64,000 bases of DNA from Minisyncoccia bacterium (lineage in GTDB: Bacteria; Patescibacteriota; Minisyncoccia; Phycocordibacterales; UBA918), in the NCBI GenBank assembly GCA_046293175.1, contig JBKBPM010000002.1, forward strand, positions 158,428 through 222,427. Direction: 5' to 3'. The notes beneath the pieces are model-generated. The model saw nothing but the letters and a program-made list of their open reading frames with translations. It was not told the origin of the DNA and did not search any database. How positions within the stretch are numbered: the first letter of the stretch is position 1; the number at the start of each line of letters is the position of its first letter. The position numbers were made by a program, and so were the translations under genes. Positions 9,087 through 55,172 of the stretch are shown here, one piece after another.

Positions 9087-9200
9087 GGTCACGAATCACT
9101 AAGTATATTTCTTCACTACGTTCGAAATCTACTAAGTGTTCGCGACCCCGCCTCGCGGTTTTCTGCTTTGGTCAAGCAGAAAACATCGCTGCGGCTCGCG
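9087..9200 (+). repeat. tRNA-downstream structured module, copy A (18-nt mini-repeat 9087-9104 + ~90-nt main repeat 9112-9200), antisense to tRNA-Lys
   Basis: ~80% identical to reverse complement of 36206-36290; the hairpin shows compensatory changes (GGTTTTCTGCTT/AAGCAGAAAACA here vs GGTTTTCTTTT/AAAAGAAAACA in copy B); partial copies at 32058-32118 and 33237-33302. Confidence 0.6.
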
Positions 9201-9236
9201 CCACCGTCGCAAGCAATACTAATTGCTTGCTAAACC

Positions 9237-9270
9237 AAAAACATCCCCATTAGCTAATGGGGATGTTTTT
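9237..9270. terminator. Intrinsic terminator hairpin AAAAACATCCCCATTAGCTAATGGGGATGTTTTT downstream of tRNA-Lys
   Basis: Perfect 12-bp stem flanked by A5/T5. Confidence 0.6.
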
Positions 9271-9279
9271 GGTTTTCGG

Positions 9280-9356
9280 TGGTGCGCCCAGTAGGGATCG
9301 AACCTACGACCTTCTCCTTAAAAGGGAGCTGCTCTACCGGCTGAGCTATAGGCGCA
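9280..9356 (-). tRNA. tRNA-Lys (anticodon TTT), CCA encoded
   Basis: Manual fold: acceptor GCGCCTA/TGGGCGC, T-arm GGTTCGATCC, anticodon loop CTTTTAA. Confidence 0.9.
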
Positions 9357-13135: not shown

Positions 13136-14083
13136 ATGCTGGGCTATGTTATTAATAAAATTGCCAGTCTACTCATTCCAATAGTGGCCATAGCGGTGGT
13201 GGTTGCACTGGTGCCTGTGCCGCAAAGTTGGACCTTACTCCTCGTTCTGGTGTCGCTGCTTGGGTACACCCACTATTTCATTGGTGCCTACTACCAACAT
13301 CAAGCTTGGCGTCGTCGTGGCATGTATAGACGTTTTTTATATAGATTTACACTACTGAGTGTAGTTTCAGTTGGATTGGTAGTTTTGGCAATCTTGAATG
13401 ATCTCCTTTGGTTAGTAGCAATTTTGACCATTCCATACTTTGTTTGGCATGGGTATGAAAATGAACATACACTCTTCACTCGTGCGACCGGTCAGCAGCT
13501 GTCTGTGTGGTTACTAGGGGGTATTAGCGCCGTCGCTGTTGGAGCGACCATTGATGCCTTTCGGCATACGAGTGCCAACTTCTCTTATTCACTTATCTAT
13601 ACAGCGGGACTCATCCCAAAATTTACAGGTACATTGGCAGAGCTGGATTCGTATTTGTACTTCGTTGGTTTTGGTCTAATGTTAGTGGGGAGTATGGCAA
13701 TTTGGTTCGCTACATTCAAACGCTACTCCAGAGCCAATGTTTTTTGGAGTGTAGCATCAGCTACTGCACTTATATGGTTTTTTATTGACAATCCACTGCC
13801 ATATATTTGGCTATTTGTATTATTACTCGGGTACCATTTTCTCACGTGGGGAATTCACTACGGAGTCGTTTTTTGGCCACAAACAAAAAAATTCTTTAAC
13901 TACCTCATGGTACATGGTCTGGTGGTGGTTGGGGTAGTAGTAGTTTCTATGGGTATTGGTTTGATTACTAGTCAATTTCCACTGGGTTTACTGAATAGTG
14001 AATTCTTTTTGACTGCCACACTTGTGCATATCTCGACTTCATTCTTGAACGACAACTGGTTACAAAAAGCCCTCGGGTTATAA
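13136..14083 (+). CDS. Hypothetical polytopic membrane protein (~9 TM)
   Basis: 315 aa, highly hydrophobic, no motif. Confidence 0.55.
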   Translation: MLGYVINKIASLLIPIVAIAVVVALVPVPQSWTLLLVLVSLLGYTHYFIGAYYQHQAWRRRGMYRRFLYRFTLLSVVSVGLVVLAILNDLLWLVAILTIPYFVWHGYENEHTLFTRATGQQLSVWLLGGISAVAVGATIDAFRHTSANFSYSLIYTAGLIPKFTGTLAELDSYLYFVGFGLMLVGSMAIWFATFKRYSRANVFWSVASATALIWFFIDNPLPYIWLFVLLLGYHFLTWGIHYGVVFWPQTKKFFNYLMVHGLVVVGVVVVSMGIGLITSQFPLGLLNSEFFLTATLVHISTSFLNDNWLQKALGL

Positions 14084-21769: not shown

Positions 21770-22400
21770 GCTAGTCTCTTTAACTATTACTCGGATATAT
21801 TCATCGGTGCAACACGATACTACAATTTACTTGATTGGAGTGAAATAAAGATTTCGTTATCGTAGCTGATTCCTTGATAATAGATTCGTACTATGAGACT
21901 TTGATTTTCAAAGTAATCTTTTGGACGAATAGATATTTTACGGTGATATATCTTGTTCAGTTTTAAGGGTATAACATCAATTTGGTATCGAAGTGGTTTA
22001 CCAGGAAGTGGTTCAAGGCTAAGTATTTCAATTTTTTCCGTCCCATTTATTACTTGTATCTCCATTTCTTTCGAAGGATATAACCATTCTAAAAGTACAC
22101 TTGGGATTCTAAAACGAAAGAGTCCATATCACACTTTTGGTTTAAGTGAAAAACTTATATCAGTTACAGTTAGATTGAAAGCCGCAGCTTCTGGCCAGAA
22201 TATGTTTTTTGATTTAAGAAATTATGAACTATGGATGTCTAAATCCTCTGGAATAAAGAAAACCTTAAACGTAAGAGGTATAAATTTCTTTAACAATGGT
22301 TTCATTGTAAATTTAATTACTCCTAGAATCAATGCCAAGCCAATAGTTATTTTAATCATAATGTTACATTTTACCACCTGAGAGAGATTCGGTCGCTACA
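21770..22400. other. AT-rich islet (~33% GC vs ~50% flanks) abutting the 3' end of tRNA-Ser; possible remnant of foreign DNA
   Basis: Compositional break visible by eye; only weak ORFs; ends at an inverted copy of the tRNA-Ser 3' end. Confidence 0.5.
21820..22065 (-). CDS. Hypothetical small protein inside AT-rich islet
   Basis: 81 aa, MEIQVINGTEKIEILSLEPLPGKPLRYQIDVIPLK; plausible beta-rich protein, no homology assignable. Confidence 0.3.
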   Translation of the reverse strand: MEIQVINGTEKIEILSLEPLPGKPLRYQIDVIPLKLNKIYHRKISIRPKDYFENQSLIVRIYYQGISYDNEIFISLQSSKL

Positions 22401-22496
22401 CGACCAGTACACCTTTTGGGTACTTTATTTCGCACGGCTCATAAAGTTCTGCAAAAGGTTTTCGAATCCCTACGCACAAGCTCCCAGCTTGTGCTC

Positions 22497-22556
22497 TCTC
22501 TCCGCGAACAAAAAAGGCGCCAAACGGCGCTCTATTTTGTACTCGCGGAGAGAGAG
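22497..22556. repeat. 14-bp perfect inverted repeat (CTCTCTCTCCGCGA / TCGCGGAGAGAGAG) made of the tRNA-Ser 3' acceptor end and an inverted copy, flanking a GC hairpin
   Basis: Read directly; inverted copy continues into a degenerate T-arm-like TTCGAATCCCT at 22474-22484. Confidence 0.6.
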
Positions 22557-22632
22557 GGATTCGAACCCTCGAGGAGCTTTCACCCCTAACAGTTTTCAAG
22601 ACTGCCGCCTTCAACCACTCAGCCATCTCTCC
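22546..22632 (-). tRNA. tRNA-Ser (anticodon TGA), long variable arm
   Basis: Manual fold: acceptor GGAGAGA/TCTCTCC, anticodon loop CTTGAAA, variable arm ~18 nt, T-arm GAGGGTTCGAATCCCTC; ORFs 22396..22749(-) and 22489..22815(+) are translation artefacts of this gene. Confidence 0.9.
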
Positions 22633-22756
22633 AATATATGCAATTTTTGTAGGTGGTTGAAGGTTCGTCCACCTGGCACTGGTTCGCTTTCGCTCACATC
22701 GTGCCTCCGCGATTTGATCGCGGAACGGATCAAAAGTGAAACTTTTCACTTTTCAT

Positions 22757-22774
22757 CCACTCAGCCATCTCTCC
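22757..22774 (-). repeat. Direct partial copy of tRNA-Ser 5' end (GGAGAGATGGCTGAGTGG) 125 nt upstream of the gene
   Basis: 18/18 identity to 22615-22632; followed by hairpin-rich sequence, no matching 3' half. Confidence 0.55.
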
Positions 22775-22899
22775 AAATATATTCAGTTGTGGCATGCACT
22801 ATAGCATTTTTTTGATTTTATACAACCATAGCTCGTAGGGGTGCGAGGGTAGGGGAAAGACCACTTTGACGTCCATCCCCATGCTAAAATAAAATTACT

Positions 22900-23370
22900 A
22901 TGAATGAAGCAATGCGGAGCATTACCTGGGAAGCCCCAGAACGTGCGCGTGGCGACAAAGGCGGGGATTGGTACTTTGCACTAAGTATTTTAACGGTGGC
23001 GGTAGTGATTGCCGCTATTATTTTTGGTAACTTCCTTTTTGCAATTTTGGCTGGTCTCTCTGGGGCGTCGCTCGCGGTCGCTGCGTCACAACCACCGCGG
23101 ATTATCCGGTACGGGGTCAGCGTCCGTGGGGTGCTTGAGGAGAACATCGTTCATCCTTTTGCGTCACTGCGGGCTTACTCGATTAATGAAGATGACCCGC
23201 GTGGGCCACAACTTCTCATTCTTTCGACGAAGACATTTGCCCCGATGATTGTCATGCCGATTCCCGAGGAATACATTGATGATATTGATGCTATCTTGTC
23301 TGAACGACTACCAGAGGAAGCTCTCGAGGAACCACTGTTTAATCGGTTGCTTGAACTAGCTGGATTCTGA
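22900..23370 (+). CDS. Hypothetical membrane protein (2 TM)
   Basis: 156 aa; TM YFALSILTVAVVIAAIIFGNFLFAILAGLSGASLAVA. Confidence 0.5.
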   Translation: MNEAMRSITWEAPERARGDKGGDWYFALSILTVAVVIAAIIFGNFLFAILAGLSGASLAVAASQPPRIIRYGVSVRGVLEENIVHPFASLRAYSINEDDPRGPQLLILSTKTFAPMIVMPIPEEYIDDIDAILSERLPEEALEEPLFNRLLELAGF

Positions 23371-23427
23371 TACTATCTTTCCCGTAACGTGACAAACAAA
23401 AAAGCTTGTGGTACTATGCCACGCATC

Positions 23428-23499
23428 GCTCTCATAGTTTAATGGATAGAATGCCGGTTTGCGGTACCTGCGATCCAGGTTCGATTCCTGGTGAGAGCA
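23428..23499 (+). tRNA. tRNA-Arg (anticodon GCG by manual fold; one C-T mismatch in anticodon stem)
   Basis: Perfect 7-bp acceptor GCTCTCA/TGAGAGC, T-arm CCAGGTTCGATTCCTGG, D-arm TAGTTTAATGGATAGAAT; TACTAT -10-like box 10 nt upstream; ORF 23406..23618 is an artefact. Confidence 0.7.
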
Positions 23500-23566
23500 C
23501 AAACGGCCGACCCATATGCGCAAGCATATGGGTCGTTGCCGTTTGTAGCTCTCACCAGGAATCGAA
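23481..23566. repeat. ~38-bp imperfect inverted repeat: tRNA-Arg 3' end plus trailer pairs with an inverted copy (loop CGCAAG)
   Basis: Arm 23481-23518 vs arm 23525-23566; followed by second GC hairpin 23569-23601. Confidence 0.6.
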
Positions 23567-23762
23567 AGACTGTTCCGGGGTCCCCTTAGGGCCGGAACAG
23601 TCCGGGTCGGGCGAATGAGATATTTTATGAGGCACGAAATAAAATATCCATGAGCGTGACCGATTCCTTCTAAAGAATTGCGTTAGGAATCGAAGCCCGA
23701 TTGAGCTGGATTATGAGCTTGCGAAATAATCCAGCCAATTGGGTGACTTCCCCTGTAAGGAC

Positions 23763-23782
23763 CGATTCCTGGTGAGAGCACA
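23763..23782 (+). repeat. Direct repeat of tRNA-Arg 3' end (CGATTCCTGGTGAGAGCACAA) ~270 nt downstream of the gene
   Basis: 20/20 identity with 23483-23502; att-like duplication signature but no integrase nearby. Confidence 0.55.
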
Positions 23783-23899
23783 ACTACGAAAAAGCGCACC
23801 CTTATGAGTGCATTTTTCGTTCGTGCTCCCATCAAAAACTACCTGAAGCATAATGTAAAACAGCATCCCTTTCGGGAGCTGTTTTACATGAGCTAATTA

Positions 23900-25795
23900 T
23901 TAATCGACAATTGTTACAACACTTGTCTCAAAGCGGTTTGCCGGAGCTGCTGTCCATGTTTGGTTTGGATTAGTAGCAGTTGCAGCATACTCGAGAGTGA
24001 GGAGTCGAAGTCGGCTTGATGTTAGCGGTGACTGTGGCTGGTGGGTAACTGAGAGGGTAACCGTCCTGGTCTGTCCTTCTGGAATAAAGAAGTAGTTCCC
24101 TTGTTCTCGAGCCGATGATGAGATGACGGCAGTACCAGTTGCAGAAAGACTATTTCCACTTGCGTCGCGAAGTTCATATGATATCGCAGCTGTATTTGAT
24201 GGCATATACACATCTTGGTTAATCGCTGTGACATCAATTGAAATCTGATAGGTGGCATAGTCATTTAGGCTGCCATTTGTACTTGTGACTACTGCATTGG
24301 TATTTTTGATAGTCACTGCCGCTCCAGCTGTTTGAAGAATATGGGTATCACCAGATACTGTGCCTGAGAGTTGGTTGCCGCTGAGATCGTCAGCACCTTC
24401 GGCTTTGATAGTCGAGCCAACCACGCGGCCTGAAATTGTGGTCCCTTCATACATTGCAGGTAAGGCTTTGAAGTCTACCTCAACAATAGCGGTGACTCTG
24501 TCGCCAGCATCTATGACCAGCTCATTGCTTTTAAAGTCGAATGTGACAATTCCTGTTGTGCCGTCAACAAGTGCTTTACGGGTATAGGTTTTACCATCAA
24601 TTATGATTCGCACGTCGCGCACCAACGTATTCATGGTTCCTGTACTGACGGATAATTCTATTGGTAGGCTGTTAATTTCTATGTCATTGATACTGTCATC
24701 AGTATCAAGGTCAAAGGCAAATACAGGGGTGAATCCTGAACGAGTAGTTCGATTGAGTACCAAAGTGGTGGCATCAATGTCATCATCACTAGTACGAATC
24801 ATCAATTCGTCACCAGTCCCCGCTTCTTCAAGTGTAATTTCAACTTGTTCACTATTATTGCCGATCTCAACCGTTGTTCGCTCTGCATCAAGAGCACGAA
24901 TACCGTTGTTTGGTACATAAACCGTCCAGTTTTCTCCATCACTGATACCGCGGATACTATTTGCAGCAGATACCTTAACTGTTAATTGTGTATCACTGTC
25001 TTCGGCTAGGAAGTGATTGAGACCTGAAATACGGAGCGTTGCTTCTCCTGTAGATCGGTTTATATCACGCCAAGCTGATTTTGAACTAGTATTAATGCGG
25101 GCAATACGGTTATTACCGTCCCAGATGCTCACGTCACTGAAAGTGTCCCAAGCATCCTTTTCATTGTTAGCAGTATTTGGTTTAAAAACCAAATCAATAC
25201 GTTGTAGTGTTGCGTCCCCGTCTTCTACGGTAAACTCGATATCAGCAATCGAACGGTTCTCGTCACGTTCTTCAAGAGTGGTATCATCTCCTGCTTTAAA
25301 TTGATAATCTCGAAACGAAGCTTCTCCCTGTGGGGTTGGATTTGTTGGAGTGGTGGTACCAGTGCCAGGGTTAATTGGAGTTGATACACAAGTTGCATTT
25401 ACTTTAGATCGAGTAACGGGACCGAAGTAACCAACGGCTGGTGTAATGTTTTGACTTCGCTGATAACTGCTAAGCGCTTGTCTTGTTTGTTCACCAAAAT
25501 ATCCTGTCGCTCCAGCAGAAATAGTGTGCCCTTTCGCTATAAGATACTGTTGTAGACGAGTAACTTCACTCCCGGTACGTCCAACCGTTAGATCTGATGT
25601 AAACGGAAGACAAGTCGTTGGGGCAGTGTTATTGCGCAATGCCTCAAGCTGTGCAAGTAATTGTGTAATCTGAGCTTGTAGATCTGCTACCGTGGTGTTA
25701 GCAGAGGCTGTGGGCGCAGGGACGCCCGCTGTCAAAAGGGAAAGTGCGAGCATACTGCCCACCACACCTTTCTGGATTTTAGAATACGGTTTCAT
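23900..25795 (-). CDS. Large secreted protein with peptidoglycan-binding (PG_binding_1-like) domain and long beta-rich C-terminal region
   Basis: Start moved to MKPYSKIQKGVVGSMLALSLLTAGVPAPTASA (signal peptide); TRLQQYLIAKGH...GYFGEQTRQALSSYQ resembles PG-binding repeat. Confidence 0.65.
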   Translation of the reverse strand: MKPYSKIQKGVVGSMLALSLLTAGVPAPTASANTTVADLQAQITQLLAQLEALRNNTAPTTCLPFTSDLTVGRTGSEVTRLQQYLIAKGHTISAGATGYFGEQTRQALSSYQRSQNITPAVGYFGPVTRSKVNATCVSTPINPGTGTTTPTNPTPQGEASFRDYQFKAGDDTTLEERDENRSIADIEFTVEDGDATLQRIDLVFKPNTANNEKDAWDTFSDVSIWDGNNRIARINTSSKSAWRDINRSTGEATLRISGLNHFLAEDSDTQLTVKVSAANSIRGISDGENWTVYVPNNGIRALDAERTTVEIGNNSEQVEITLEEAGTGDELMIRTSDDDIDATTLVLNRTTRSGFTPVFAFDLDTDDSINDIEINSLPIELSVSTGTMNTLVRDVRIIIDGKTYTRKALVDGTTGIVTFDFKSNELVIDAGDRVTAIVEVDFKALPAMYEGTTISGRVVGSTIKAEGADDLSGNQLSGTVSGDTHILQTAGAAVTIKNTNAVVTSTNGSLNDYATYQISIDVTAINQDVYMPSNTAAISYELRDASGNSLSATGTAVISSSAREQGNYFFIPEGQTRTVTLSVTHQPQSPLTSSRLRLLTLEYAATATNPNQTWTAAPANRFETSVVTIVD

Positions 25796-27408: not shown

Positions 27409-28467
27409 TTACATAGACAACTTGAGCTTAAGTAGTTGCTGCAAGAGACTTATGATTTGCTGCATTAATTTGATGTTCAATTCGTTATTTTCAACAGCTT
27501 CGACAACTTCCTCGACTTCATCCACTTCTTCTTCCTCTACCACTTCTTCATCTTCGTCAGTGTTATCCGGAGCACTGACGTAGTTTACTCCTTGGTTAAT
27601 GACTATGTTAGGGTTTTGCTTACGGGCTTCGTAATTAAGATGAACCTTGCTCGGTTGGAAGTTTATTTCACGCCAAATGTTTGGAACACTACCAGTATAT
27701 TTGGCAATCGAATCAGATGTTACATAGCCCCAGTGACCATCAGCCACACGGAGCTTGTACCAAGTTTTTCCACCAATCGTTTGCGGTGTATAGAAGTACA
27801 GAATTTCCGTCAGACTCCCTTTGGCGACAACGAACTTACGGTTGCCGTTTGGTGCATCGTAGTAGGTGGCGTCTTTACTCAATACCACAATTTCACCACC
27901 CTTGAATTCTTTCGTAGGGGTTGGAGTAGGAGTTGGTGTTGGGGTCGGTGTTGGGGTAGGAGTTGGTGTTGGAGTTGTATTCCCGCCACTATTTGCAGGA
28001 GCTCCCGCTGGTGGGGTAACGTAATTAACTCCTTGGTCAATAACGATATTGTAATTTACTTTACGAGCTTCGTAGTTGAGGTGTACCTGACTTGGTTGGT
28101 AGTCAATTTCACGCCAAATAGTTGGAACGGTACCTGTATATTTGGAAATCAAACTTTCTCGCACATATCCGTAATATCCGTCGGCCACACGTAGTTTGCG
28201 CCAGATTTGCCCATTGCGCACTTCCGGATCGGCGAAGTAAAGTACTTCTGCTAAGGTGCCTGGCGCGACCACAAATCGCACTGCCTCATTTCCTGGTTCG
28301 TAATGGAATGGTGTGTTTTGGTTAAGTATAACAATCTCAGACCCAGCAAAAGCGCTTGTCTGGGCGTGGGTAACAGCTGGGCTAAAACAAACTATATATG
28401 CCGTAGCGATAAACGCCATTCCGACTACAAGTTTGCGAAACAAACTTTGGTAACTAATTATTTGCAT
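27409..28467 (-). CDS. Secreted protein with two SH3b-like repeats separated by a (TP)n linker and an acidic C-terminal tail
   Basis: 352 aa; signal peptide; two ~110-aa internal repeats (..KLRVADG.WGYV..IAKYTG.VP.IWREI..QPS.VHLNYEARK..NIVI.QGVNYV); TPTPTPTPTPTPTPT linker; EDEEVVEEEEVDEVEEVVE tail. Confidence 0.6.
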   Translation of the reverse strand: MQIISYQSLFRKLVVGMAFIATAYIVCFSPAVTHAQTSAFAGSEIVILNQNTPFHYEPGNEAVRFVVAPGTLAEVLYFADPEVRNGQIWRKLRVADGYYGYVRESLISKYTGTVPTIWREIDYQPSQVHLNYEARKVNYNIVIDQGVNYVTPPAGAPANSGGNTTPTPTPTPTPTPTPTPTPTPTKEFKGGEIVVLSKDATYYDAPNGNRKFVVAKGSLTEILYFYTPQTIGGKTWYKLRVADGHWGYVTSDSIAKYTGSVPNIWREINFQPSKVHLNYEARKQNPNIVINQGVNYVSAPDNTDEDEEVVEEEEVDEVEEVVEAVENNELNIKLMQQIISLLQQLLKLKLSM

Positions 28468-32057: not shown

Positions 32058-32118
32058 GGTCACCAGTCACTAATTATAATTGTTCACTACGTTCGAAATC
32101 TACTAAGTGTTCACGACC
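32058..32118 (+). repeat. tRNA-downstream module, partial copy C (mini-repeat + first ~36 nt of main repeat), antisense to tRNA-Arg(TCT)
   Basis: TTCACTACGTTCGAAATCTACTAAGTGTTC identical to copy A for 30 nt. Confidence 0.5.
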
Positions 32119-32249
32119 TTGGCTTGGAATCGTCCTGACGGTCACCAAGCTAGATTGTTTCGTATACACTCACAATCTAGCAGGTGCCGCGGGACACGGC
32201 TCGCCGGCCCTAAACTTGCAAAAGCGTCCCACGCTTTCTCACCCGGCTT

Positions 32250-32340
32250 TGCCGTTCGATTCCAAGCCGTGCCTACAAATGGCAACAGCCAGAACGCATG
32301 CGCGTGCTGGCTGGCCATTTGTGCCCCGGCTTGGAATCGA
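32250..32340. repeat. ~36-bp inverted repeat: tRNA-Arg(TCT) T-arm/acceptor/trailer pairs with an inverted copy; inner palindrome CGCATGCG
   Basis: Arm GTTCGATTCCAAGCCG.GGCACAAATGGC.AGCCAG on both strands; same architecture as at tRNA-Arg(GCG). Confidence 0.6.
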
Positions 32341-32392
32341 ACCAAGAATAACGGCTTAGAAGTCCGCAGTTATATCCATTTAACTACCGGGA
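32321..32392 (-). tRNA. tRNA-Arg (anticodon TCT)
   Basis: Manual fold: acceptor GTCCCGG/CCGGGGC (one G-U), D-arm GTTAAATGGATATAAC, anticodon loop CTTCTAA, T-arm CTTGGTTCGATTCCAAG; 72 nt; ORFs 32107..32406(+) and 32142..32345(-) are spurious. Confidence 0.7.
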
Positions 32393-32487
32393 CGCACCCC
32401 ATCTAAAGATGAGGTGAAGCTAGCATAGCAAAAAAATGCTGTGTCGGAAACTTCGTAAATCGTGGCAGGTTTTGTATACTAAGGCGT

Positions 32488-33225: not shown

Positions 33226-33236
33226 GGGCGGGACTT

Positions 33237-33302
33237 GGTCATAAGTCACTAAGCTTTTTATTGAACTCAGTTCATAAAAATCTAAGTACTTGCGACCCCT
33301 CC
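33237..33302 (+). repeat. tRNA-downstream module, partial copy D, antisense to tRNA-Val
   Basis: GGTCATAAGTCACTAAGC + TTCATAAAAATCTAAGTACTTGCGACCCCTCC; ~75% identity to copy A. Confidence 0.5.
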
Positions 33303-33418
33303 TTGACTCTCTCTTTCTCCGCTTCGCTCCGAAATTCGCATGAGTCCCCGGCTTTCAAGTCCCTTATCGCCAGACCAACAGCAACGGCCGGAACACTAAC
33401 GTGTTCCGGCCGGCTGAT

Positions 33419-33494
33419 TGGTGGGCGATGAGGGACTTGAACCCCCGACCTTCTCAGTGTAAATGAGCTGCTCTACCAACTGAGCTAATCGCCC
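33419..33494 (-). tRNA. tRNA-Val (anticodon TAC), CCA encoded
   Basis: Manual fold: acceptor GGGCGAT/ATCGCCC, anticodon loop TTTACAC, T-arm GGGGGTTCAAGTCCCTC. Confidence 0.9.
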
Positions 33495-36040: not shown

Positions 36041-36124
36041 GCCCAGGTGGCGAAATTGGTAGACGCACTACCTTGAGGTGGTAGCGCCTTCACAGGCATG
36101 CTGGTTCAAATCCAGTCTTGGGCA
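36041..36124 (+). tRNA. tRNA-Leu (anticodon GAG), long variable arm, CCA not encoded
   Basis: Manual fold: acceptor GCCCAGG/CTTGGGC, anticodon stem CTACC/GGTAG loop TTGAGGT, T-arm CTGGTTCAAATCCAG. Confidence 0.9.
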
Positions 36125-36127
36125 CAA

Positions 36128-36155
36128 TATAAAAGACGCACCGAGGTGCGTCTTT
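36128..36155 (+). terminator. Intrinsic terminator AAAAGACGCACCGAGGTGCGTCTTTT after tRNA-Leu
   Basis: Perfect hairpin with A4/T4 flanks. Confidence 0.6.
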
Positions 36156-36205
36156 TATATTGTGCCCAAGAAGAAAAGCATTAATATGCTTTTCGTCTGG
36201 ATTTG

Positions 36206-36290
36206 AAAGCCGCAGCGTTGTTTTCTTTTAACAAAAAAGAAAACCGCGAGGCGGGGTCGAGAGTACTTAGATTTTTATGAACGAAGTGAA
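36206..36290 (-). repeat. tRNA-downstream module, copy B main repeat (reverse complement of copy A), antisense to tRNA-Leu; mini-repeat at 36523-36540
   Basis: ~80% identity to 9112-9200 with compensatory hairpin substitutions; mini-repeat ACTTAGTGATTCGTGACC identical to copy A. Confidence 0.6.
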
Positions 36291-36592
36291 ATAAAAAGCT
36301 TTGTAACTTGTGACCTAATCCAGTCTTGGTTATTCATAATACCGAAACGGGTGAGCCCTGGGTGAGAAATGGGAAAGGGACCCATTTCGCAAGACCTTTT
36401 GAGAAATCTTTTATTTCCAAAAGGGGTACTGCTCCTGTAAGGAGGAAGTTCTTACTAGAATTGGAGCGAAGCAAACAATTATAGTTAGCAACTTGACCCC
36501 AGTGAAAATACGCACCTCAAAAACTTAGTGATTCGTGACCAAGACAAACAACTTCTGACCAAATCCACTCTCTACACCACCGTCTATAGCTG

Positions 36593-41044: not shown

Positions 41045-41521
41045 AGATAAAGATTGTTGTGGCGAGATACAACCCGCAAAACAGCCAAAGCGCGTGACAG
41101 CATAGTCACGTGCTTTTGCTTTCTCTCGCCAAAGTCATAAATCAGTATTCCAATACGTACTGTCCACCAGTTATCCACATTTGGTGGGGTGTGGTGGCGA
41201 ATATAACTATATTTTTCAATCCTATTTCCGAAAAGACTGGTCTTTTTACAAGAAAGCAAAACCACTCTATGATAGAGGTACCGCACGAGTTCTCCAATCG
41301 TGCGTGTCGGAGGTATAGACACGCCACGTGCACGCCAATTTCATGACGTGAACCATGGCCAGCATGTTCTGGTGTGTCTTTATTTCCCTCATTCTTTCCC
41401 AGACCCAATCGGCACGTAGGACACTAGAGTTAGTCGCTTGAGTACTATACGCACCACCACAGATTGTGTTTGGATGAGAAACCAATTATTACCACTGTCG
41501 CCTAACTGTTCTTGTTGTGAT

Positions 41522-42835
41522 ATGGAAATTAAGCAGATAAAAAAGCGTGACGGTTCAATCAAGCCTTTTGATATTGCAAAGATTGAGCACGCCATTCTGA
41601 GGGCTCTCATGGAGACCAATGCCGGTGGAGAAGCAGATGCCAAAAAAGTTGCAACGCTCGTCCATCAAAAAGTAGTATCAATGTGTGTCCAAGCCGGCAC
41701 GGCTGAAGCTGGTGATCCAAAGGCGCAGAAATGTGTTGATGGATACCCAACCGTCGAAGAAATCCAAGACCTGGTTGAGGCGTCACTCATGGAGCTTAAC
41801 TATTTTGATACCGCCAAGGCGTACATCATTTATCGTAATGAGCGGAAGAAGATGCGTGAGCGAGATATTTTCCGCAAACGCCAGCACCTCAAGCCCTACG
41901 AGTACCCAGAACTGTACGAGTATGTTGATGCTATCCGCCACTCCTACTGGGTACACACTGAATTCAACTTTACCGGTGACGTGCAGCACTTCCACGTGAA
42001 CGTCAACGATGCTGAACGAAACGCTATCAAGAACACAATGCTTGCTATCGCGCAGATTGAAGTCGCGGTGAAAAGCTTTTGGGGGGACATATACAAGAAG
42101 ATGCCAAAGCCAGAGATTGGGGCGGTGGGGTCTACTTTTGCGGAATCTGAGATTCGTCACACTGATGCCTATTCACACCTGCTTGAAATTCTTGGTCTCA
42201 ATAATGAGTTTGCCAAGATCAAAGATATTCCTGTGATTAAGCAGCGTATGGACTACCTTGATAAGGTAGCTGAACTCTCACGTACGCAGGAGAACCGTGA
42301 GTACGCACACGCGATCATGCTCTTCTCACTTTTTATAGAACATGTGTCATTGTTCTCACAGTTCCTCATCATGATGTCATTTAACAAGCACAAGAACTTG
42401 TTTAAAGGTATCAGTAATGCGGTCGAGGCAACCAGTAAAGAAGAGAACCTTCACGGCCTCTTTGGTATTGATGTGATCAACATCATTAAAGAAGAACACC
42501 CAGAATGGTTTGATAAGGCGATGCAAGAAGCAATCTTAAAGGCATGTGAAGAAGCGTACGAAGCTGAAAGTCGCGTGGTGGACTGGATTTTCGAAGCGGG
42601 AGAACTCGACTTTTTGCCGTCACAGAACGTGAAGGAATTTATCAAGAATCGTCTCAATAACTCACTTGCGGCTATTGGTATGCCTCGCCACTTTGAAGTA
42701 AGTGAAGCTCTCCTTGAGGAAACTGATTGGTTTGATAATGAAGTCATTGCGACCAAACACGTCGACTTCTTCGATAAGCGTTCAATCAACTACAACAAAC
42801 GCGCTGCCAGTGTCACCAGTGAAGATTTATTCTAG
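41522..42835 (+). CDS. nrdB: Class I ribonucleotide reductase small (beta/R2) subunit with N-terminal ATP-cone domain
   Basis: Start at MEIKQIKKRDGSIKPFDIAKIEHAI (ATP-cone pattern K.RDG....F...KI); remainder is a ferritin-like R2 fold with the metal-ligand E..H pair (AESEIRHTDAYS); the N-terminal 28 codons of the ORF-track call are discarded. Confidence 0.75.
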   Translation: MEIKQIKKRDGSIKPFDIAKIEHAILRALMETNAGGEADAKKVATLVHQKVVSMCVQAGTAEAGDPKAQKCVDGYPTVEEIQDLVEASLMELNYFDTAKAYIIYRNERKKMRERDIFRKRQHLKPYEYPELYEYVDAIRHSYWVHTEFNFTGDVQHFHVNVNDAERNAIKNTMLAIAQIEVAVKSFWGDIYKKMPKPEIGAVGSTFAESEIRHTDAYSHLLEILGLNNEFAKIKDIPVIKQRMDYLDKVAELSRTQENREYAHAIMLFSLFIEHVSLFSQFLIMMSFNKHKNLFKGISNAVEATSKEENLHGLFGIDVINIIKEEHPEWFDKAMQEAILKACEEAYEAESRVVDWIFEAGELDFLPSQNVKEFIKNRLNNSLAAIGMPRHFEVSEALLEETDWFDNEVIATKHVDFFDKRSINYNKRAASVTSEDLF

Positions 42836-42856
42836 TAATGCTGTATTTCTGTCCAT

Positions 42857-44551
42857 ATGTCTATTAACTACCAAGAGCCGTGGTACTGGGTAAATGAAAA
42901 TACCCGAGCCTTCATGTCCCGGGGGTACCTCGTTGACGGTCAGACGACCGAAGAACGAGTTCGTTACATTGGCGAGTACGCCGAAAAAGTATTAAATAAA
43001 CCAGGCTTTGCGAAGAAGTTTGAGGATTATATGAGTCGTGGCTGGATTTCGCTCGCCACACCAGTATGGGCCAACTTTGGTCTTAAGCGTGGTCTACCAA
43101 TCAGTTGTTTTGGCTCGTTTGTGGCAGATGATATGGCGAACATTCTCCATACGCAGGCCGAAGTTGGGATGATGAGTAAGTACGGTGGGGGATGCTCTGC
43201 TTATTTTGGTGATCTTCGTCCACGTGGTAGCGAAATTACCCAGAATGGACACTCATCTGGTCCAGTCCACTTCATGCAGCTGTTTGAAAAGATTCTTGAT
43301 GTGGTGAGTCAAGGAGCAACTCGTCGTGGTGTTTTTGCTGCCTACCTGCCGGTTGAACATCCCGATATTCTTGAGTTTCTCGATATTGGCACCGAAGGGA
43401 ATCCGATTCAAAAAATCAACCATGCAGTGACGGTAACTAATAAGTGGATGGAAGAGATGGTGGCGGGCGATGCTGATAAGCGTGCAATTTGGGCGAAGGT
43501 GATACAGCGCCGCGGTGAAATCGGCTACCCGTACATTATCTTCATTGATAATGCGAACGAAGGGAAGCCAGACGTCTACAAGGACAAGAATCTCCCGATT
43601 TATGCAAGTAATGTCTGTAGTGAGATTATGCTCCCGAGTAACCGTGATTGGTCATTTGTGTGTTGTCTCTCGTCTATTAACATCATGCATTATGATGACT
43701 GGAAGGATACTGATCTCGTCGAAACGATGACCTACTTCCTTGACGCGGTGATGAGTGAGTTTATCTCGAAGCTCGAAGTCATGCGTGATCACGAGGATAA
43801 GGACAAGCGTCTAGCCTTCCGTTTTATGGAACGACCATACAACTTTGCGGTGGCGAACCGTGCGCTGGGACTTGGGGTGCTGGGGTACCACTCATACTTA
43901 CAGTCAAAAGGTCTGCCGTTTGAAAGTGAAGAAGCTAGACGTATCAACAAAGAGATTTTTGCCTTGATGCAAGAGCGGTCACTGAAGGCTTCAGCTGAAA
44001 TGGCTAAAGAGTACGGTGAACCAGAAATCCTTAAGGGTTATGGCCGCCGCCACACAACCACCATGGCGATTGCCCCGACTACCTCATCAGCCTTTATTCT
44101 TGGTCAGGTGTCACAGGGGATTGAACCAATCTGGTCCAACTGCTACATTAAGGACGTGGCGAAGCTCAAGGTGGTTATTAAGAACCCAACACTTGAAACC
44201 TTGCTTGATGAGAAAGGGAAGAACACCAAAGAAGTCTGGGACAGTATTCGTGACAACGATGGTTCGGTGCAACACCTTGATTTTCTCTCTGATGATGAAA
44301 AGGCGGTATTCCGCACCTTTGCCGAGATTGATCAGAGCAAGCTCATTATGCACGCTGGTGAACGGCAAAAGTTTATTGACCAAGGGCAATCACTCAATGT
44401 GATGGTGGCGCCTGATACGCCAGTAAAGGAAATCAACCAGCTCTACCTCCAGGCCTGGAAGCAGGGTTGCAAGGCACTCTACTACCAACACAGTATGAAC
44501 GCCGCACAGCAGTTGACTCGCAAGAAGATTCAGGAACGAGCGCAGAAGTGA
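42857..44551 (+). CDS. nrdA: Ribonucleotide reductase large (alpha) subunit, short form lacking N-terminal ATP-cone
   Basis: 564 aa; conserved catalytic core motifs (CFG...NLC..I pattern: ISCFGSFV, SNVCSEI); paired with ATP-cone NrdB upstream. Confidence 0.85.
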   Translation: MSINYQEPWYWVNENTRAFMSRGYLVDGQTTEERVRYIGEYAEKVLNKPGFAKKFEDYMSRGWISLATPVWANFGLKRGLPISCFGSFVADDMANILHTQAEVGMMSKYGGGCSAYFGDLRPRGSEITQNGHSSGPVHFMQLFEKILDVVSQGATRRGVFAAYLPVEHPDILEFLDIGTEGNPIQKINHAVTVTNKWMEEMVAGDADKRAIWAKVIQRRGEIGYPYIIFIDNANEGKPDVYKDKNLPIYASNVCSEIMLPSNRDWSFVCCLSSINIMHYDDWKDTDLVETMTYFLDAVMSEFISKLEVMRDHEDKDKRLAFRFMERPYNFAVANRALGLGVLGYHSYLQSKGLPFESEEARRINKEIFALMQERSLKASAEMAKEYGEPEILKGYGRRHTTTMAIAPTTSSAFILGQVSQGIEPIWSNCYIKDVAKLKVVIKNPTLETLLDEKGKNTKEVWDSIRDNDGSVQHLDFLSDDEKAVFRTFAEIDQSKLIMHAGERQKFIDQGQSLNVMVAPDTPVKEINQLYLQAWKQGCKALYYQHSMNAAQQLTRKKIQERAQK

Positions 44552-50061: not shown

Positions 50062-50490
50062 ATGTTAGAAGTGTACGTTGGTGCTGCTCTTACCGGAGCT
50101 CCGCCTGAATTCGTCAATAACTTCCTGCCGGCACTTAAGGCAGGAATTCGCCAGATGGATATCCATGTGTTCGACTTCATCGGTCTGGAGGGAGAAACGG
50201 CACTCAAGGTCTATATTCATGACCGGAACTGCACCGAGCTGGCCGATGTCTGTGTTTTTTTGGTTGGTGAACCATCGACTGGCCTCGGCATGGAAATCAT
50301 GCTGCGGGAGGGGACAGGGAAACCTGCTCTGTTCTTTGCACAGGAGAACGCTCGTGTGACCCGCATGCTTCTCGGTTTTCTCGAGGTGCGCGGGCAGAAA
50401 CTCCACCGCTACAACACTGCCGAAGACATTTGTCATGTGCTGCGGGAGCATGTCCTCGCTCGGGATCCGAACTACTGGTCGCGCGGCTAG
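50062..50490 (+). CDS. Nucleoside 2-deoxyribosyltransferase-like / Rcl(DNPH1)-like protein
   Basis: Start at ATG preceded by AGGAGA SD (inside ORF 49951..50490); N-terminal VYVGAALTG..F and C-terminal ADVCVFLVGEPSTGLGMEIMLREGTGKPAL match the NDT-family A-D/G/E-x-GT-x-E-x-G-x-A-x-GKP signature. Confidence 0.6.
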   Translation: MLEVYVGAALTGAPPEFVNNFLPALKAGIRQMDIHVFDFIGLEGETALKVYIHDRNCTELADVCVFLVGEPSTGLGMEIMLREGTGKPALFFAQENARVTRMLLGFLEVRGQKLHRYNTAEDICHVLREHVLARDPNYWSRG

Positions 50491-50507
50491 GGGCAGAGCT
50501 GAATCAA

Positions 50508-50540
50508 AGAAAGGGCGCGGGAGACTGCGCCTTTTTCTTA
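50508..50540 (+). terminator. Intrinsic terminator GGCGCGGGAGACTGCGCCTTTTTCTT
   Basis: GC hairpin plus T-run after NDT-like gene. Confidence 0.5.
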
Positions 50541-50570
50541 TCTCATATCACTGCTATACTACTAACCAAT

Positions 50571-51674
50571 ATGGAATTGTCGCGACAGGGAGCCTTGCCC
50601 GCCCAACAGCTACAACAGCTTATGGACAGTGGTTTTATAAAAGGAGCAGACACCACTCATGTGTCACCAGCTTCACTTGATCTCACCGTCAGTGATGAGG
50701 TGTATGAAATTGAAGGGCTCCTCTTACCAAAAAGTGGGGAGACCATTAAGAGTCTCTTGCCACTTATGGATGCAAGGCGTATTGATTATAGTAATCCCTG
50801 TCGAGCGAAGAAACTTTACCTCGCTCGCCTCAATGAATCCCTCGAGCTTCCATCTGCTATCTATGGGTACTGCAATCCGAAATCATCAACCGGAAGACTT
50901 GATGTCCATGTACGGGTGCTCGCTGATGGGGTACCACGCTTTGATTCAGTGACTCCAAAGGGTTTTGTAGGTGAGTTATGGGTGGCGATTATCCCGCAGT
51001 CTTTTTCTGTCCAACTTCATGTGGGAACGCCGCTGACCCAGCTCCGCCTTTTTACCGCTGATACCCGCTTTTCAGAACTTGATTTAGAAATTGCCATGAA
51101 AGAAGGTTTGGTCTATAGTCGTGAATCTGGTGAAAAACTTTCGTATAGTGAATTGGTAACTAACGATCAAGATGGGGCAGTGGTACTCACCGCTTTAGTC
51201 GAAGAAGGGCTTTGTGGCTATGAGTGTATAGCGATCCCTGACCAAATTATTGACGTGGCACAAGTGGGTGGCTATGAAGCAGCCGAGTTTTTTAAACCGC
51301 TAACCATTGACCGCGGGGCACTGCGTCTTAAGCGCGACCGCTTTTACATACTCTCGGGTGCTGAAGCCGTACGGATTCCACCAGGATTAGCCTCTGAGAT
51401 GGTGCCAATGGATGAACGCAGTGGTGATTTTCGCTCCCACTATGCCGGTTTCCTTGACCCTGGATGGGGCTACGGACAGGACGGTGCTGGGAAGGGGCGC
51501 CCGTTTACGCTTGAGGTCCGACCGTTTGAGGATTTAGTAGTGAGACCAGGTCAACCAATCGCGAAGATTCGTTTTGAGCGAATGGCTGAGGTGCCCACCT
51601 TTCATTACGACACAAAACAATCAAACTACCTCATCCAGTTTGGTCCAAAACTTGGAAAGCAATTTAAGAGCTAA
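50571..51674 (+). CDS. Tandem dUTPase-fold dCTP deaminase-like protein (PF06559 'DCD'-like)
   Basis: Start at MELSRQG.. (upstream 47 codons overlap previous gene and terminator); both halves resemble Dcd (KSSTGRLDVHVRV ~ GRSSLARLGLMVHV; FLDPGWGYG...FTLEVRPFEDLVVRPGQPIAKIRFERM ~ IDPGWSG..IVLEFYN...LRPGMLIGALSFE). Confidence 0.65.
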   Translation: MELSRQGALPAQQLQQLMDSGFIKGADTTHVSPASLDLTVSDEVYEIEGLLLPKSGETIKSLLPLMDARRIDYSNPCRAKKLYLARLNESLELPSAIYGYCNPKSSTGRLDVHVRVLADGVPRFDSVTPKGFVGELWVAIIPQSFSVQLHVGTPLTQLRLFTADTRFSELDLEIAMKEGLVYSRESGEKLSYSELVTNDQDGAVVLTALVEEGLCGYECIAIPDQIIDVAQVGGYEAAEFFKPLTIDRGALRLKRDRFYILSGAEAVRIPPGLASEMVPMDERSGDFRSHYAGFLDPGWGYGQDGAGKGRPFTLEVRPFEDLVVRPGQPIAKIRFERMAEVPTFHYDTKQSNYLIQFGPKLGKQFKS

Positions 51675-51678
51675 ACAA

Positions 51679-51708
51679 AAACCCCGCGACAATGTCGCGG
51701 GTTTTTTT
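51679..51708. terminator. Bidirectional terminator AAAAACCCCGCGACAATGTCGCGGGTTTTTTTG between convergent DCD-like and thyX-like genes
   Basis: Perfect GC hairpin with A5/T7 flanks. Confidence 0.6.
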
Positions 51709-51714
51709 GTTTAG

Positions 51715-53076: not shown

Positions 53077-53230
53077 ATATCTCTATTGTACGCTTTTTCT
53101 AGGGCAACAATTAAACGATTCTCGGTTTTGACAGGGGACAGTCACTTTGACTAGATTGACCGTTGAGCAAAGCTGTTTTTGAGTGCCTCGAATATTTGGC
53201 TTGAAACCGTGGTATTAGGTAAAATAGCGT

Positions 53231-53926: not shown

Positions 53927-53929
53927 GGT

Positions 53930-54352: not shown

Positions 54353-54361
54353 CGTACAATA

Positions 54362-55051: not shown

Positions 55052-55172
55052 GAGTCTAGTCAAAAAAGCCTGCAGACAAGGAACGAGAGCGAGTAAATGT
55101 GAAGCGTATTAGATATACGATGAACTTTTACGAGCGAGCAGTGACGTCGTATCCAGGTTTTTTGGACGGACT

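Follow-up and report, generated by a model that had tools for sequence, protein, structure and literature searches.

Tandem gene-less hairpin elements behind tRNA genes of a Patescibacteria genome: candidate cassette-like insertions at the T-loop

The cis-mobilizable elements (CIMEs) and the ccr-less SCC cassettes found at the 3' end of rlmH are integrase-less derivatives of integrative elements. The Dada DNA transposons combine a DDE transposase with 6-7-bp target-site duplications and have neither a structured module nor an inverted target copy, and we know of no target duplication at all in the IS200/IS605 elements. There are reviews on ICEs (PMC5812530) and on integron attC sites and CTX-phage-type integration of folded single strands (PMC5027507, PMC8946536), and Dada elements of eukaryotes insert at fixed positions within tRNA and snRNA genes (PMC8869645). 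In Patescibacteria, tRNA genes harbour group I introns at anticodon-loop position 35/36, mostly without protein genes, and group II introns are reported to be absent (PMC13011429).

Here we analysed a stretch of 64,000 nucleotides (the window) in which a tRNA-Arg(GCG) gene is followed by a hairpin-rich region. Like Campbell-type insertions and CIMEs, this region has direct repeats of the target and a restored gene end, here as an exact repeat of 21 nt. A literature search returned no published description of such a family of hairpin elements.

The tRNA-Arg(GCG) locus

The genes for PolA, a type II/IV secretion ATPase, PilM, L19 and ArgRS, together with the L19-based relatives, assign the window to a Kaiserbacteria-like member of the Patescibacteria, and this gene content ruled out the archaeal or phage origin that the GCG anticodon and the dispersed tRNAs had led us to suspect. 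The preliminary description of the locus had regarded the anticodon as unusual and in need of confirmation, and had considered that the gene might be a pseudogene or carry another anticodon. ARAGORN called an intact tRNA-Arg(GCG), the Rfam tRNA model (RF00005) matched it with 59.2 bits against a gathering score of 29, and orthologues that keep the anticodon were found in 13 related Patescibacteria genomes; a pseudogene or a mis-called anticodon was thereby ruled out, and GCG is normal for the host lineage. The hairpin that follows the whole feature (Table 1) is probably the native terminator of this gene, shared with the convergent gene.

To describe the sequence behind the gene we use a simple grammar, in which the tRNA end (A) is followed by a hairpin (H), then by A in reverse complement (A'), by the structured module X and by a second copy of A (A2). 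The anatomy and its boundaries were read directly from the sequence (Table 1). Immediately after the gene lies a 41-bp hairpin that mirrors the tRNA 3' end and contains two pairs of inverted arms, 23480-23498 / 23548-23566 (19 nt) and 23508-23519 / 23524-23535 (12 nt), each 100% complementary; read jointly, they form a single hairpin (23480-23519 / 23524-23566) whose loop is GCAA and whose stem has two bulges, one of TT and one of 1 nt at the discriminator. Both the inverted copy of the tRNA 3' end and a 20-nt direct repeat at 23763-23782 had been recognised previously. The first is present with fully complementary arms, and the second is essentially right, its exact part being the 21 nt CGATTCCTGGTGAGAGCACAA (23482-23502 and 23763-23783, 281 nt apart) within a longer repeat of 26 nt and 92% identity (23477-23502 and 23758-23783). 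The suggestion that this repeat is attL/attR-like also pointed in the right direction, as the distal copy behaves as a displaced original tRNA end; since A and A2 are identical here, the window copy alone cannot separate import from local duplication.

The interval of about 270 nt between the repeats had been taken as one stretch, but it is made up of two elements in tandem, of which the first is a type-3 module (23548-23668) and the second an S-type module (23685-23783). It had been called ORF-free; the ORFs overlapping the region are short (at most 70 aa) with TTG or GTG starts, and no credible ORF was found inside the element. The RNA fold of 23428-23800 reaches -191 kcal/mol (z = -12.95; 0 of 100 shuffles were equally stable), and the DNA fold of 23480-23783 reaches -97.7 kcal/mol (z = -18.6). 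A terminator scan did not call H at 23500-23547 as an intrinsic terminator, its tail being TTTGTAG. In the window, tRNA-Arg(TCT) combines the same type of H with a type-3 X, and so does tRNA-Leu at another locus (L003).

Table 1. Features of the tRNA-Arg(GCG) locus and of the other elements in the window
Feature	Position	Strand	Basis
tRNA-Arg(GCG) promoter, sigma-70-like, GTGACA-17-TACTAT with TG extension	23389..23417	+	consensus match only
tRNA-Arg(GCG), intact, CCA not encoded	23428-23500	+	ARAGORN call and Rfam tRNA
A, T-loop (T54) to tRNA 3' end plus CAA; functional target copy; exact repeat part 23482-23502	23480..23502	+	repeat search
H, CAAAYRGCC-stem-GCAA-stem-GTTGCYRTTTGTAG; runs into the tRNA end and into A'	23500..23547	+	inverted-repeat search, folds
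A' no. 1, T54 to C72 (23480-23498) in exact reverse complement, ending exactly at T54	23548..23566	+	inverted-repeat search
X module, type 3, AGACWGTTYCGGGG...GGGTCGGGCGAATGAG-hairpin-CATGAGYGTGAC	23567..23660	+	alignment with the L003 tRNA-Leu copy
Short direct copy of T-loop and T-stem, CGATTCCT, closing the first element	23661..23668	+	direct-repeat search
A' no. 2, AGGAATCGAA, reverse complement of T54 to T63	23685..23694	+	direct- and inverted-repeat search
X module, S-type, GCCCGATTGAG-hairpin-CCAATTGGGTGAC-hairpin with TGTAA loop	23695..23762	+	24-member alignment
A2, exact 21-nt direct copy, C56 to 3' end plus CAA	23763..23783	+	direct-repeat search
Terminator-like hairpin 3' of A2 (core 23795-23812)	23786..23820		terminator scan and sequence
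Elements 3' of tRNA-Arg(TCT) (32321-32393): H, A', type-3 variant X, A2 (32121-32132), then type-2 module	32058..32320	-	
S-type element 3' of tRNA-Ser(TGA) (22545-22632); A' split by an extra hairpin	22381..22544	-	
Insertion 5' of tRNA-Ser: relic promoter and tRNA 5' 23 nt (22752-22782), structured segment, inverted D-loop copy CCTTCAACCACC	22633..22782	-	
Type-2 element 3' of tRNA-Lys (9280-9355), extreme-3'-end configuration	9087..9279	-	covariance model, 115.9 bits
Type-2 element 3' of tRNA-Val (33419-33494)	33230..33418	-	
Type-2 element and second composite module 3' of tRNA-Leu(GAG) (36041-36125)	36126..36498	+	

Recurrence and structural conservation of the elements

Six of the seven tRNA genes in the window, those for Arg(GCG), Arg(TCT), Ser, Lys, Val and Leu, show the grammar A-H-A'-X-A2, and the remaining one, tRNA-His, is without an element. 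The earlier proposal that the same design at tRNA-Arg(TCT) reflects a recurring mechanism was thus borne out at that minus-strand gene, and it extends to Ser, Lys, Val and Leu. At tRNA-Lys and tRNA-Leu, H has the look of a canonical terminator. The grammar also occurs upstream of tRNA-Ser, there in the opposite orientation if the strand has been read correctly.

The association with tRNA genes was also seen in Kaiserbacteria-like relatives. Among 159 tRNAs, 57 had a downstream inverted copy and 58 a downstream direct copy of at least 10 nt, whereas the upstream control regions of the same tRNAs had 0 inverted and 0 direct copies, which excludes chance. It had been thought that relatives might lack the mirror copy; they do have it, although built with different elements. 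The junctions are precise, with A' ending exactly at T54 in 104 of 130 inverted copies and A2 beginning at C56 in 46 of 81 cases, and the direct repeats range from 5 to 24 nt across the copies. A covariance model gave 81 matches from loci that had not been chosen for their X content, and 65 of these (80%, against 8.3% expected by chance) lay no more than 600 nt downstream of a tRNA on the same strand. Among metagenome sequences, the pattern occurs on at least 120 contigs and stands downstream of 34 tRNA species; tmRNA and the 3' end of ftsZ are also targeted, as are, occasionally, 5' parts of tRNAs.

The X modules, which are about 70-130 nt long in whole elements of about 100-280 nt without genes, show strong compensatory covariation, and by sequence they group into at least three families (types 2, 3 and S). 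For type 2, 96% of cells were paired over 29 pairs (30-40% in slid controls), 19 pairs showed compensatory changes, and the covariation of 0.454, compared with about 0.05-0.07, was matched by 0 of 500 shuffles. Compensatory changes were present in all 19 predicted pairs of the S-type module (24-member alignment), and the type-3 copy at the tRNA-Leu of L003 was close to the Arg(GCG) module by inspection, again with compensatory changes. Judged from these alignments, X is under structural selection.

Turnover of the elements and competing explanations

Among assembled contigs, turnover was seen at orthologous tRNA-Leu sites, which are empty, filled, or filled with different types, and contigs of sister strains with an identical 156-aa neighbouring protein have different elements at the same tRNA-Arg(GCG). 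Tandem arrays were found at three loci (L005, L035 and L056). Identical X also occurs at different tRNAs: the module at tRNA-Arg(TCT) in the window and that at tRNA-Ser(TGA) of L205 are 100% identical over about 86 nt, whereas their H is wholly different and A' and A2 match the own tRNA in each. At L002, A2 matches another tRNA-Leu allele and not its own tRNA, and the ftsZ relic of L193 shows many synonymous differences and codes for an unchanged peptide; these two cases indicate that the distal copy is the old target. Together, the strain-level variation in presence and type, the occurrence of the grammar at the ftsZ 3' end and its occurrence upstream of tRNA-Ser argue for a mobile element at the DNA level. 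H types track X types in some cases and not in others, so the unit of mobility is not cleanly defined.

The explanation we favour, with a probability of roughly 55%, is that the Arg(GCG) feature consists of two tandem, gene-less integrative mini-elements that are non-autonomous, behave like cassettes and use sites derived from the T-loop for recombination; they would be members of a large family settled at tRNA 3' flanks of Kaiserbacteria-like Patescibacteria. Each unit is an X cassette between an inverted (A') and a direct (A2) copy of the local target, with its junctions in the T-loop, at T54 for the end of A' and at C56 for the start of A2. The working tRNA end A lies upstream of H and A2 would be the displaced original end, so that insertion would leave the gene active. 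A trans-acting enzyme may carry out conservative site-specific recombination at the T-loop-derived sites, by which X would move as a cassette, either through excision and insertion or through exchange. Folded single-stranded DNA is the probable substrate, with A' paired to A or A2 so as to mimic a double-stranded target. We infer a circular or single-stranded intermediate, and likewise the class of the enzyme and any role of H as a terminator. No transposase, integrase or reverse transcriptase Pfam domain was found in the 50 scanned window ORFs of at least 142 aa.

A role at the RNA level, in which the X modules are small structured RNA genes or cis-acting parts of tRNA precursors that spread by duplication, appears fairly unlikely to us. 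Read-through of H would then bring X into the tRNA transcript, and the A':A2 stem, as a copy of the acceptor/T-arm helix, would let RNase P and RNase Z-type enzymes release the product; in a variant, A' would compete with the tRNA fold and so regulate maturation. The strong covariation speaks for this, as it includes a G.U pair, conserved in 28 of 31 sequences, that is readable on the tRNA-sense strand only, and RNA function would fit this pair and the extensive sequence conservation of X equally well. X and tRNA are also co-oriented in nearly all cases, and in the minimum free energy RNA fold A' binds the 3' half of the tRNA, whereas A2 binds its 5' strand. However, a folded single-stranded DNA substrate accounts for the covariation just as well, X lies behind terminator-like hairpins that are strong at several loci (Lys, Leu), and a promoter scan gave it no convincing promoter of its own. 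The same X follows the coding end of ftsZ and also occurs upstream of tRNAs, its presence and type vary between sister strains, which implies that it is dispensable, and no Rfam family matched it (at gathering threshold the curated models found only tRNAs in the whole window, and at E <=10 only noise in 22300-23950).

An extension of the cassette explanation, which we consider distinctly doubtful, is that the constant X serves as scaffold for one trans-acting enzyme and the variable A' as guide, so that targeting would be nucleic-acid-programmed. A' is complementary to the intact target, reaching 2-8 nt past the A2 boundary, and together with the carried copy A it could let one cassette family address dozens of unrelated sites; the putative targets would be the T-loops of 34 tRNA species, tRNA 3' ends, tmRNA, the ftsZ 3' end and the complement of a D-loop. 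If true, this would be a natural, reprogrammable and gene-restoring form of insertion in the spirit of bridge RNA and omega-RNA, with a different architecture. An omega-RNA-like arrangement proper, with X as scaffold and A2 as 3' guide, was rejected, as the functional tRNA copy would be self-targeted and there is no TnpB or IscB.

An origin that needs no enzyme is very unlikely in our judgement. Replication would switch templates at the palindrome of the terminator, by an MMBIR-like extension of a quasi-palindrome, and so produce the direct-inverted-direct pattern, with X spreading by gene conversion through T-loop microhomology. A-H-A' at tRNA-Arg(GCG) is indeed a continuous near-perfect palindrome, T-loops offer near-universal microhomology, and the identity of transferred X copies stops inside the T-loop-derived TCGAA and CGAWTCC. 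At ftsZ, however, A' is a discrete segment of 10-12 nt that spans the junction and is no continuous fold-back, and at many loci a conserved extra hairpin interrupts A'. The precision of the junctions over 34 tRNA species, like the conserved structure of X, suggests that a protein does the recognising.

The view that these are decayed att-site scars of larger integrative elements or prophages strikes us as highly improbable. Its candidate would be the large-serine-recombinase elements common in the lineage, of which genes or fragments adjoin tRNA 3' ends at at least seven loci. At one tRNA-Tyr (L116), 5.4 kb with a large serine recombinase is followed by H-A'-X and a 21-nt direct repeat, and two cargo islands (L050 and L054), with genes for a two-component system, hydrolase, phosphatase and methyltransferase and with no recombinase found in them, also end in H-A'-X and a direct repeat. 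But L116, the one candidate for an autonomous parent and the only case in which a complete element and a recombinase occur together, has the look of a nested insertion: its recombinase element and that of L201 are homologous right from the tRNA end, which places the recombinase insertion inside a pre-existing mini-element, between its A and its H. In L201, an 11-nt 'inverted copy' lies inside a coding region and was discarded as a chance match. Four other loci of this recombinase family, reached through a homologue search, have no X and no direct repeat of at least 12 nt within 10 kb. Large-serine-recombinase att sites are about 40-50 bp long, with a dyad around a 2-nt crossover, and are bound by an adjacent recombinase; A' and A2 would form a perfect dyad around T54-T55 were X removed, but X interrupts it, and the recombinase and X show no co-occurrence. 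The recombinase appears an unlikely mobiliser, as the family sits on tRNA genes without X or long repeats at those four loci. Viral contigs matched neither the recombinase nor the X pattern, and covarying structure and modules 100% identical at different tRNAs are not expected of scars.

The preliminary description had read the locus as a single regulatory design in which the primary transcript would have its tRNA 3' end sequestered by the long hairpin; this is physically possible, as the predicted fold does hide that end and the design recurs, but it is scarcely probable, as the tRNA folds ahead of A' transcription and the elements are polymorphic between strains, absent at tRNA-His and many orthologous sites, and present at non-tRNA targets, so that the comparative data point to mobile DNA instead. 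Reverse-transcription models (tRNA-primed or snap-back) were rejected, with no reverse transcriptase in the window and no continuous fold-back in the ftsZ A', as was a group I intron in the T-loop, for which there was no model match and the module is too small.

If the cassette explanation is correct, active mobile cassettes with no genes and a conserved structure, missed by annotation, accompany a large share of the tRNA genes of a major uncultured bacterial lineage, with about a third of the sampled tRNAs as carriers. Synteny between strains breaks at the elements, which would also cause tRNA 3' halves and the flanking terminators to turn over and which sometimes bracket cargo genes. They would also offer a new model of how minimal genomes tolerate mobile DNA, namely because insertion rebuilds the gene that it hits. 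The T54/C56 junctions and the target-matching inverted copy provide a testable handle on a recombination activity that is either undescribed or not yet linked to these sites, and the family would account for spurious hairpins and tRNA fragments that annotation pipelines encounter near Patescibacteria tRNAs.

Comparison with known systems

The group I introns of Patescibacteria are structured elements at tRNA genes in the same phylum, but the hairpin elements lie outside the mature tRNA and are too small; in the whole window at gathering threshold, no Rfam model of a group I or II intron or of a known small ribozyme matched. Dada elements share the fixed insertion positions in tRNA genes, and differ from the bacterial elements, which have a structured module and an inverted target copy. 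MITEs, and the PATEs (palindrome-associated miniature derivatives of IS200/IS605), are likewise small, non-coding, multi-copy, hairpin-rich and bracketed by inverted repeats. Here, however, the bracketing repeats copy the local tRNA end and so vary among the copies, a short target-site duplication of fixed length is lacking, and no parent IS was found. Unlike in an IS200/IS605 PATE, which has hairpins at its left and right ends and inserts 3' of a tetra- or pentanucleotide, the target duplication is long; the window yielded neither a Y1 transposase nor TnpB, and Rfam gave no match to the elements.

Integron cassettes with their attC sites are closer in several respects. They too have imperfect inverted repeats around a variable, structure-conserved segment, a precise recombination point in a short core and tandem arrays at one docking site; some are gene-less and others have cargo, and structure is conserved above sequence. 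The folded-strand substrate that we propose would, by analogy, follow the logic of attC sites and the CTX phage. In contrast to integrons, docking is at the tRNA T-loop or another gene 3' end instead of attI, and no IntI-type integrase was found among the scanned window ORFs. The sequence of X is much more conserved than that of attC, and the GTTRRRY core is only loosely like the GTTCRAN seen here: A' ends in ...TCGAA and A2 starts with (G)TTCRA or CRANYCC, which gives a layout like RYYYAAC/GTTRRRY without matching the consensus. The direct repeats are long here (12-24 nt), unlike those of integrons, because the element restores the gene end.

In this last respect the elements resemble CIMEs and ccr-less SCC cassettes, which also insert in the 3' part of a conserved gene and restore the displaced end, are flanked by direct repeats of the target, accrete in tandem and include non-autonomous members without a recombinase. 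They differ from these in their size of only about 100-280 nt, the lack of genes, the inverted target copy and the covarying module, and whereas classical integrative elements are tied to one att site, a single hairpin-element module serves dozens of tRNAs.

Anatomy and genomic setting of the tRNA-Arg(GCG) locus

The 19 nt before the discriminator of tRNA-Arg(GCG) (23480-23498) are the exact reverse complement of 23548-23566, and an inner hairpin (23508-23519/23524-23535) fills the space between these arms, giving over 23480-23566 a single helix of about 41 bp in all with a GCAA loop and two small bulges. Further downstream, at 23763-23783, the part of the gene running from C56 to its 3' end, together with the following CAA, is directly repeated without mismatch (21 nt). 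The preliminary description of a long hairpin and a direct repeat was thus correct, and folding calculations showed the region to be far more stable than shuffled controls (z = -12.95 as RNA, z = -18.6 as DNA). Its reading of the repeat as att-like and of the design as recurrent also stood, but the interval of about 270 nt that it had treated as one stretch did not: motif comparison resolved the 280 nt 3' of the tRNA into two tandem units (see table). In what follows, A denotes the tRNA end, H the hairpin, A' the reverse complement of A, X a structured module (type 2, type 3 or S-type) and A2 the second direct copy of A.

Coordinates of the elements at tRNA-Arg(GCG) (window positions) and of large serine recombinase copies in related loci
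Feature	Location	Remark
tRNA-Arg(GCG)	23428-23500	intact
Unit 1, A'	23548-23566	
Unit 1, type-3 module	23567-23660	
Unit 1, short target copy	23661-23668	CGATTCCT
Unit 2, A'	23685-23694	AGGAATCGAA
Unit 2, S-type module	23695-23762	
Unit 2, A2	23763-23783	
Recombinase copies	L116:4303-5832; L201:8378-9991; L203:10001-11572; L204:231-1787	
Recombinase fragments	L020, L121, L043, L068, L072	

The GCG anticodon had been flagged as unusual and in need of confirmation. ARAGORN and Rfam agree on an intact tRNA-Arg, a consensus match to a sigma-70-like promoter lies directly 5' of it, and among the loci selected via ribosomal protein L19 from metagenome-assembled Candidatus Kaiserbacteria, Paceibacteria and other Patescibacteria genomes, 13 genomes carry tRNA-Arg(GCG) at the orthologous position, so the anticodon is characteristic of the lineage rather than miscalled. 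Proteins encoded in the window include PolA, a type II/IV secretion ATPase, PilM, RuvABC, L19, ArgRS and nucleotide-metabolism enzymes; no mobile-element enzymes were found among the window ORFs scanned. Genes for deoxynucleotide metabolism are densely clustered at 41438-44551 and 50430-56973 (small and large ribonucleotide reductase subunits, dCTP deaminase-like, ThyX-like, two thymidylate kinase paralogues and SHMT). The region of a 352-aa ORF with a weak SH3 match (27409-28467, minus strand) contains a 135-nt direct repeat of 77% identity (27578-27712/28019-28153) and a GT-rich 12-nt tandem repeat (27914-27985).

Recurrence at tRNA, tmRNA and ftsZ 3' ends

The order A-H-A'-X-A2 was also found 3' of the window genes for tRNA-Arg(TCT), Ser, Lys, Val and Leu, tRNA-His being the only window tRNA to lack it; at some loci A' is split by an extra hairpin. 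Among 159 evaluable tRNAs of closer relatives, 57 had an inverted copy (10 nt or longer) in the 200 nt that follow the gene, 58 a direct copy of the same minimum length in the 450 nt that follow, and 41 both, and the upstream control regions of the same tRNAs had neither inverted nor direct copies. The exact complement of positions 54-61 was found downstream of 130 of 478 tRNAs, with complementarity ending exactly at T54 in 104 of these 130, and A2 started at C56 in 46/81 cases and at positions 53-55 in a further 19. The junctions are therefore precise and lie inside the T-loop. X is bracketed by inverted copies of the target and the gene end is restored.

Scanning 1.16 Mb of L19-anchored loci with a type-2 covariance model gave 81 matches, 65 of them within 600 nt downstream of a tRNA on the same strand (expected 8.3%). 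An exact-pattern scan was positive for at least 120 metagenome contigs and for none of the viral contigs, and 75 of 126 pattern matches sit after tRNAs, representing 34 anticodon species. Several of the remaining orphan matches follow sequence resembling the 3' end of tmRNA, and in one contig (L166) ARAGORN confirmed the tmRNA itself. There the gene (13154-13575) is followed by at least four type-2-like modules arrayed as far as 14273; several other metagenome contigs show the same arrangement after a tmRNA-like end (...CATCTCCACCA).

Other orphan matches lie after the 3' end of ftsZ (peptide ...DDWGAVPAFLRRSKL), a recurrent non-tRNA site of the type-2 module (L193:2156-3397, minus strand; L187:1829-3112; L190; L134). 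Beyond the element is a displaced second copy of the last ~35 nt of the gene. In L193 the two copies differ at many synonymous positions yet specify one and the same peptide; the functional ftsZ end was thus imported rather than duplicated in place. The same holds for a tRNA-Leu locus (L002), as its A2 matches a different tRNA-Leu allele. The relic copy can be older or foreign. At tRNA-Leu(GAG) downstream of rplS, orthologous in L002-L056, at least five different T-arm sequences occur with L19 80-90% identical, a variety which suggests that tRNA 3' halves are exchanged together with element turnover.

On its 5' side, the window tRNA-Ser has an insertion with a relic copy of the promoter and of the first 23 nt of the tRNA plus an inverted D-loop copy, and 5' relics of this kind were found in other genomes too. 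In four related loci (L005, L033, L023 and L006) a near-complete relic tRNA-Arg(TCT), its T-loop broken by a hairpin and an S-type module, immediately precedes the functional copy; at these loci replacement extended to the entire gene, not to its end alone.

Conservation and exchange of the structured modules

The structure of X is conserved on one strand. In an alignment of 31 type-2 modules, 29 pairs were identified with 96% of cells paired, compared to 30-40% when partners were slid, and 19 pairs showed compensatory changes; the covariation score was 0.454 against about 0.05-0.07 and was reached by 0/500 shuffles. A G.U pair on the tRNA-sense strand is kept in 28/31 sequences. Compensatory changes were seen in every one of the 19 pairs predicted for the S-type (24 modules, the two window copies among them). 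Clear homology links the type-3 module and H at the window tRNA-Arg(GCG) with their counterparts at a tRNA-Leu in a related locus (L003), and the tRNA-derived segments differ, each matching its own tRNA.

Contigs encoding a protein identical to the 156-aa product of window 22900-23370 revealed three states 3' of tRNA-Arg(GCG). L206 is arranged as the window. L205 shares the window's first element, after which come part of a foreign tRNA, another type-3 module and a gene other than the one found downstream in the window. In L207, H is unrelated and the module is of the S-type, with A' segments that once more match tRNA-Arg. Furthermore, X at the L205 tRNA-Ser is 100% identical over ~86 nt to X at the window tRNA-Arg(TCT), with H wholly different, A' and A2 fitting their own tRNA, and identity stopping within the T-loop-derived TCGAA and CGAWTCC. 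As identical modules sit at different tRNAs, X acts like a cassette, passing from one T-loop-derived site to another within a very short time. Tandem arrays of elements exist, and cassettes are exchanged.

Downstream of the L205 tRNA-Arg(GCG) is a cupin gene where the window has one for a peptidoglycan-binding protein, placing the synteny break at the X module. In this tRNA (L205:3529-3601), T is replaced by A in the 3' strand of the acceptor (TGGAGAGAGC), which would unpair position 7-66, and its A' has lost 1 nt. Directly upstream of tRNA-Ser, sister strains carry a gene for an HNH endonuclease (183 aa, PF01844; L205:2412-3001, L207, L208); the window (22633-22900) and L206 have there ~60 nt of unrelated sequence, the relic and a structured insertion, the HNH gene being an indel between strains with an otherwise identical neighbouring protein.

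Proposed mechanism and relation to known systems

Elements in tandem, belonging to a so far undescribed family of miniature integrative elements that are structured, resemble cassettes and target tRNA T-loops in Patescibacteria, best account for the feature; a function of the elements at the RNA level is a serious rival. Under integration, conservative, site-specific recombination at T-loop-derived sites would be carried out by a trans-acting enzyme, which probably acts on a single strand folded so that A' is paired with A (via H) or with A2 (via X), mimicking a double-stranded target. The same substrate logic applies to integron attC sites and to CTX phage. A' is the complement of 56-7x plus AA and A2 is 56-7x; the two would form a perfect dyad if X, which lies at the scissile position in the top strand, were removed. 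A' and A2 correspond exactly to the two strands expected from a 2-nt staggered cut at T54-T55, which is consistent with serine-type chemistry without proving it. The ftsZ A' spans the junction as a discrete segment of 10-12 nt, which argues against an origin by simple fold-back copying; A' may possibly act as a guide.

A large serine recombinase was considered as mobilising enzyme. In L116, tRNA-Tyr is followed by 5.4 kb including such a gene and then by H-A'-X and a 21-nt direct repeat; in L054 and L050, cargo genes that include no recombinase separate the tRNA from a distal H-A'-X with repeat, and recombinase fragments adjoin tRNA 3' ends in L020 and L121. However, homologues in L201-L204, convergent on tRNA genes and antisense into them, had neither X nor a direct repeat of at least 12 nt within 10 kb, and since the L116 and L201 elements are homologous from the tRNA end onward, that of L116 most probably entered an earlier mini-element, separating its A from its H. 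The recombinase is therefore no more than a candidate mobiliser. The family (2541 homologues at E <= 1e-20) is convergent on tRNA genes in Patescibacteria, its ORF running antisense through all of tRNA-Tyr in L201 and, in L203 and L204, into tRNA-Lys as far as the anticodon loop.

Our literature search found no description of these tRNA-end mini-elements. Group I introns of Patescibacteria tRNAs differ from them in being true introns, at position 35/36 (PMC13011429). The present elements differ from classical MITEs in that the repeats bracketing them are target copies, and from IS200/IS605 derivatives in that the target is duplicated. Nearest in consequence are integrase-less att-flanked elements such as CIMEs and ccr-less SCC cassettes, and nearest in layout are integron cassettes with attC.
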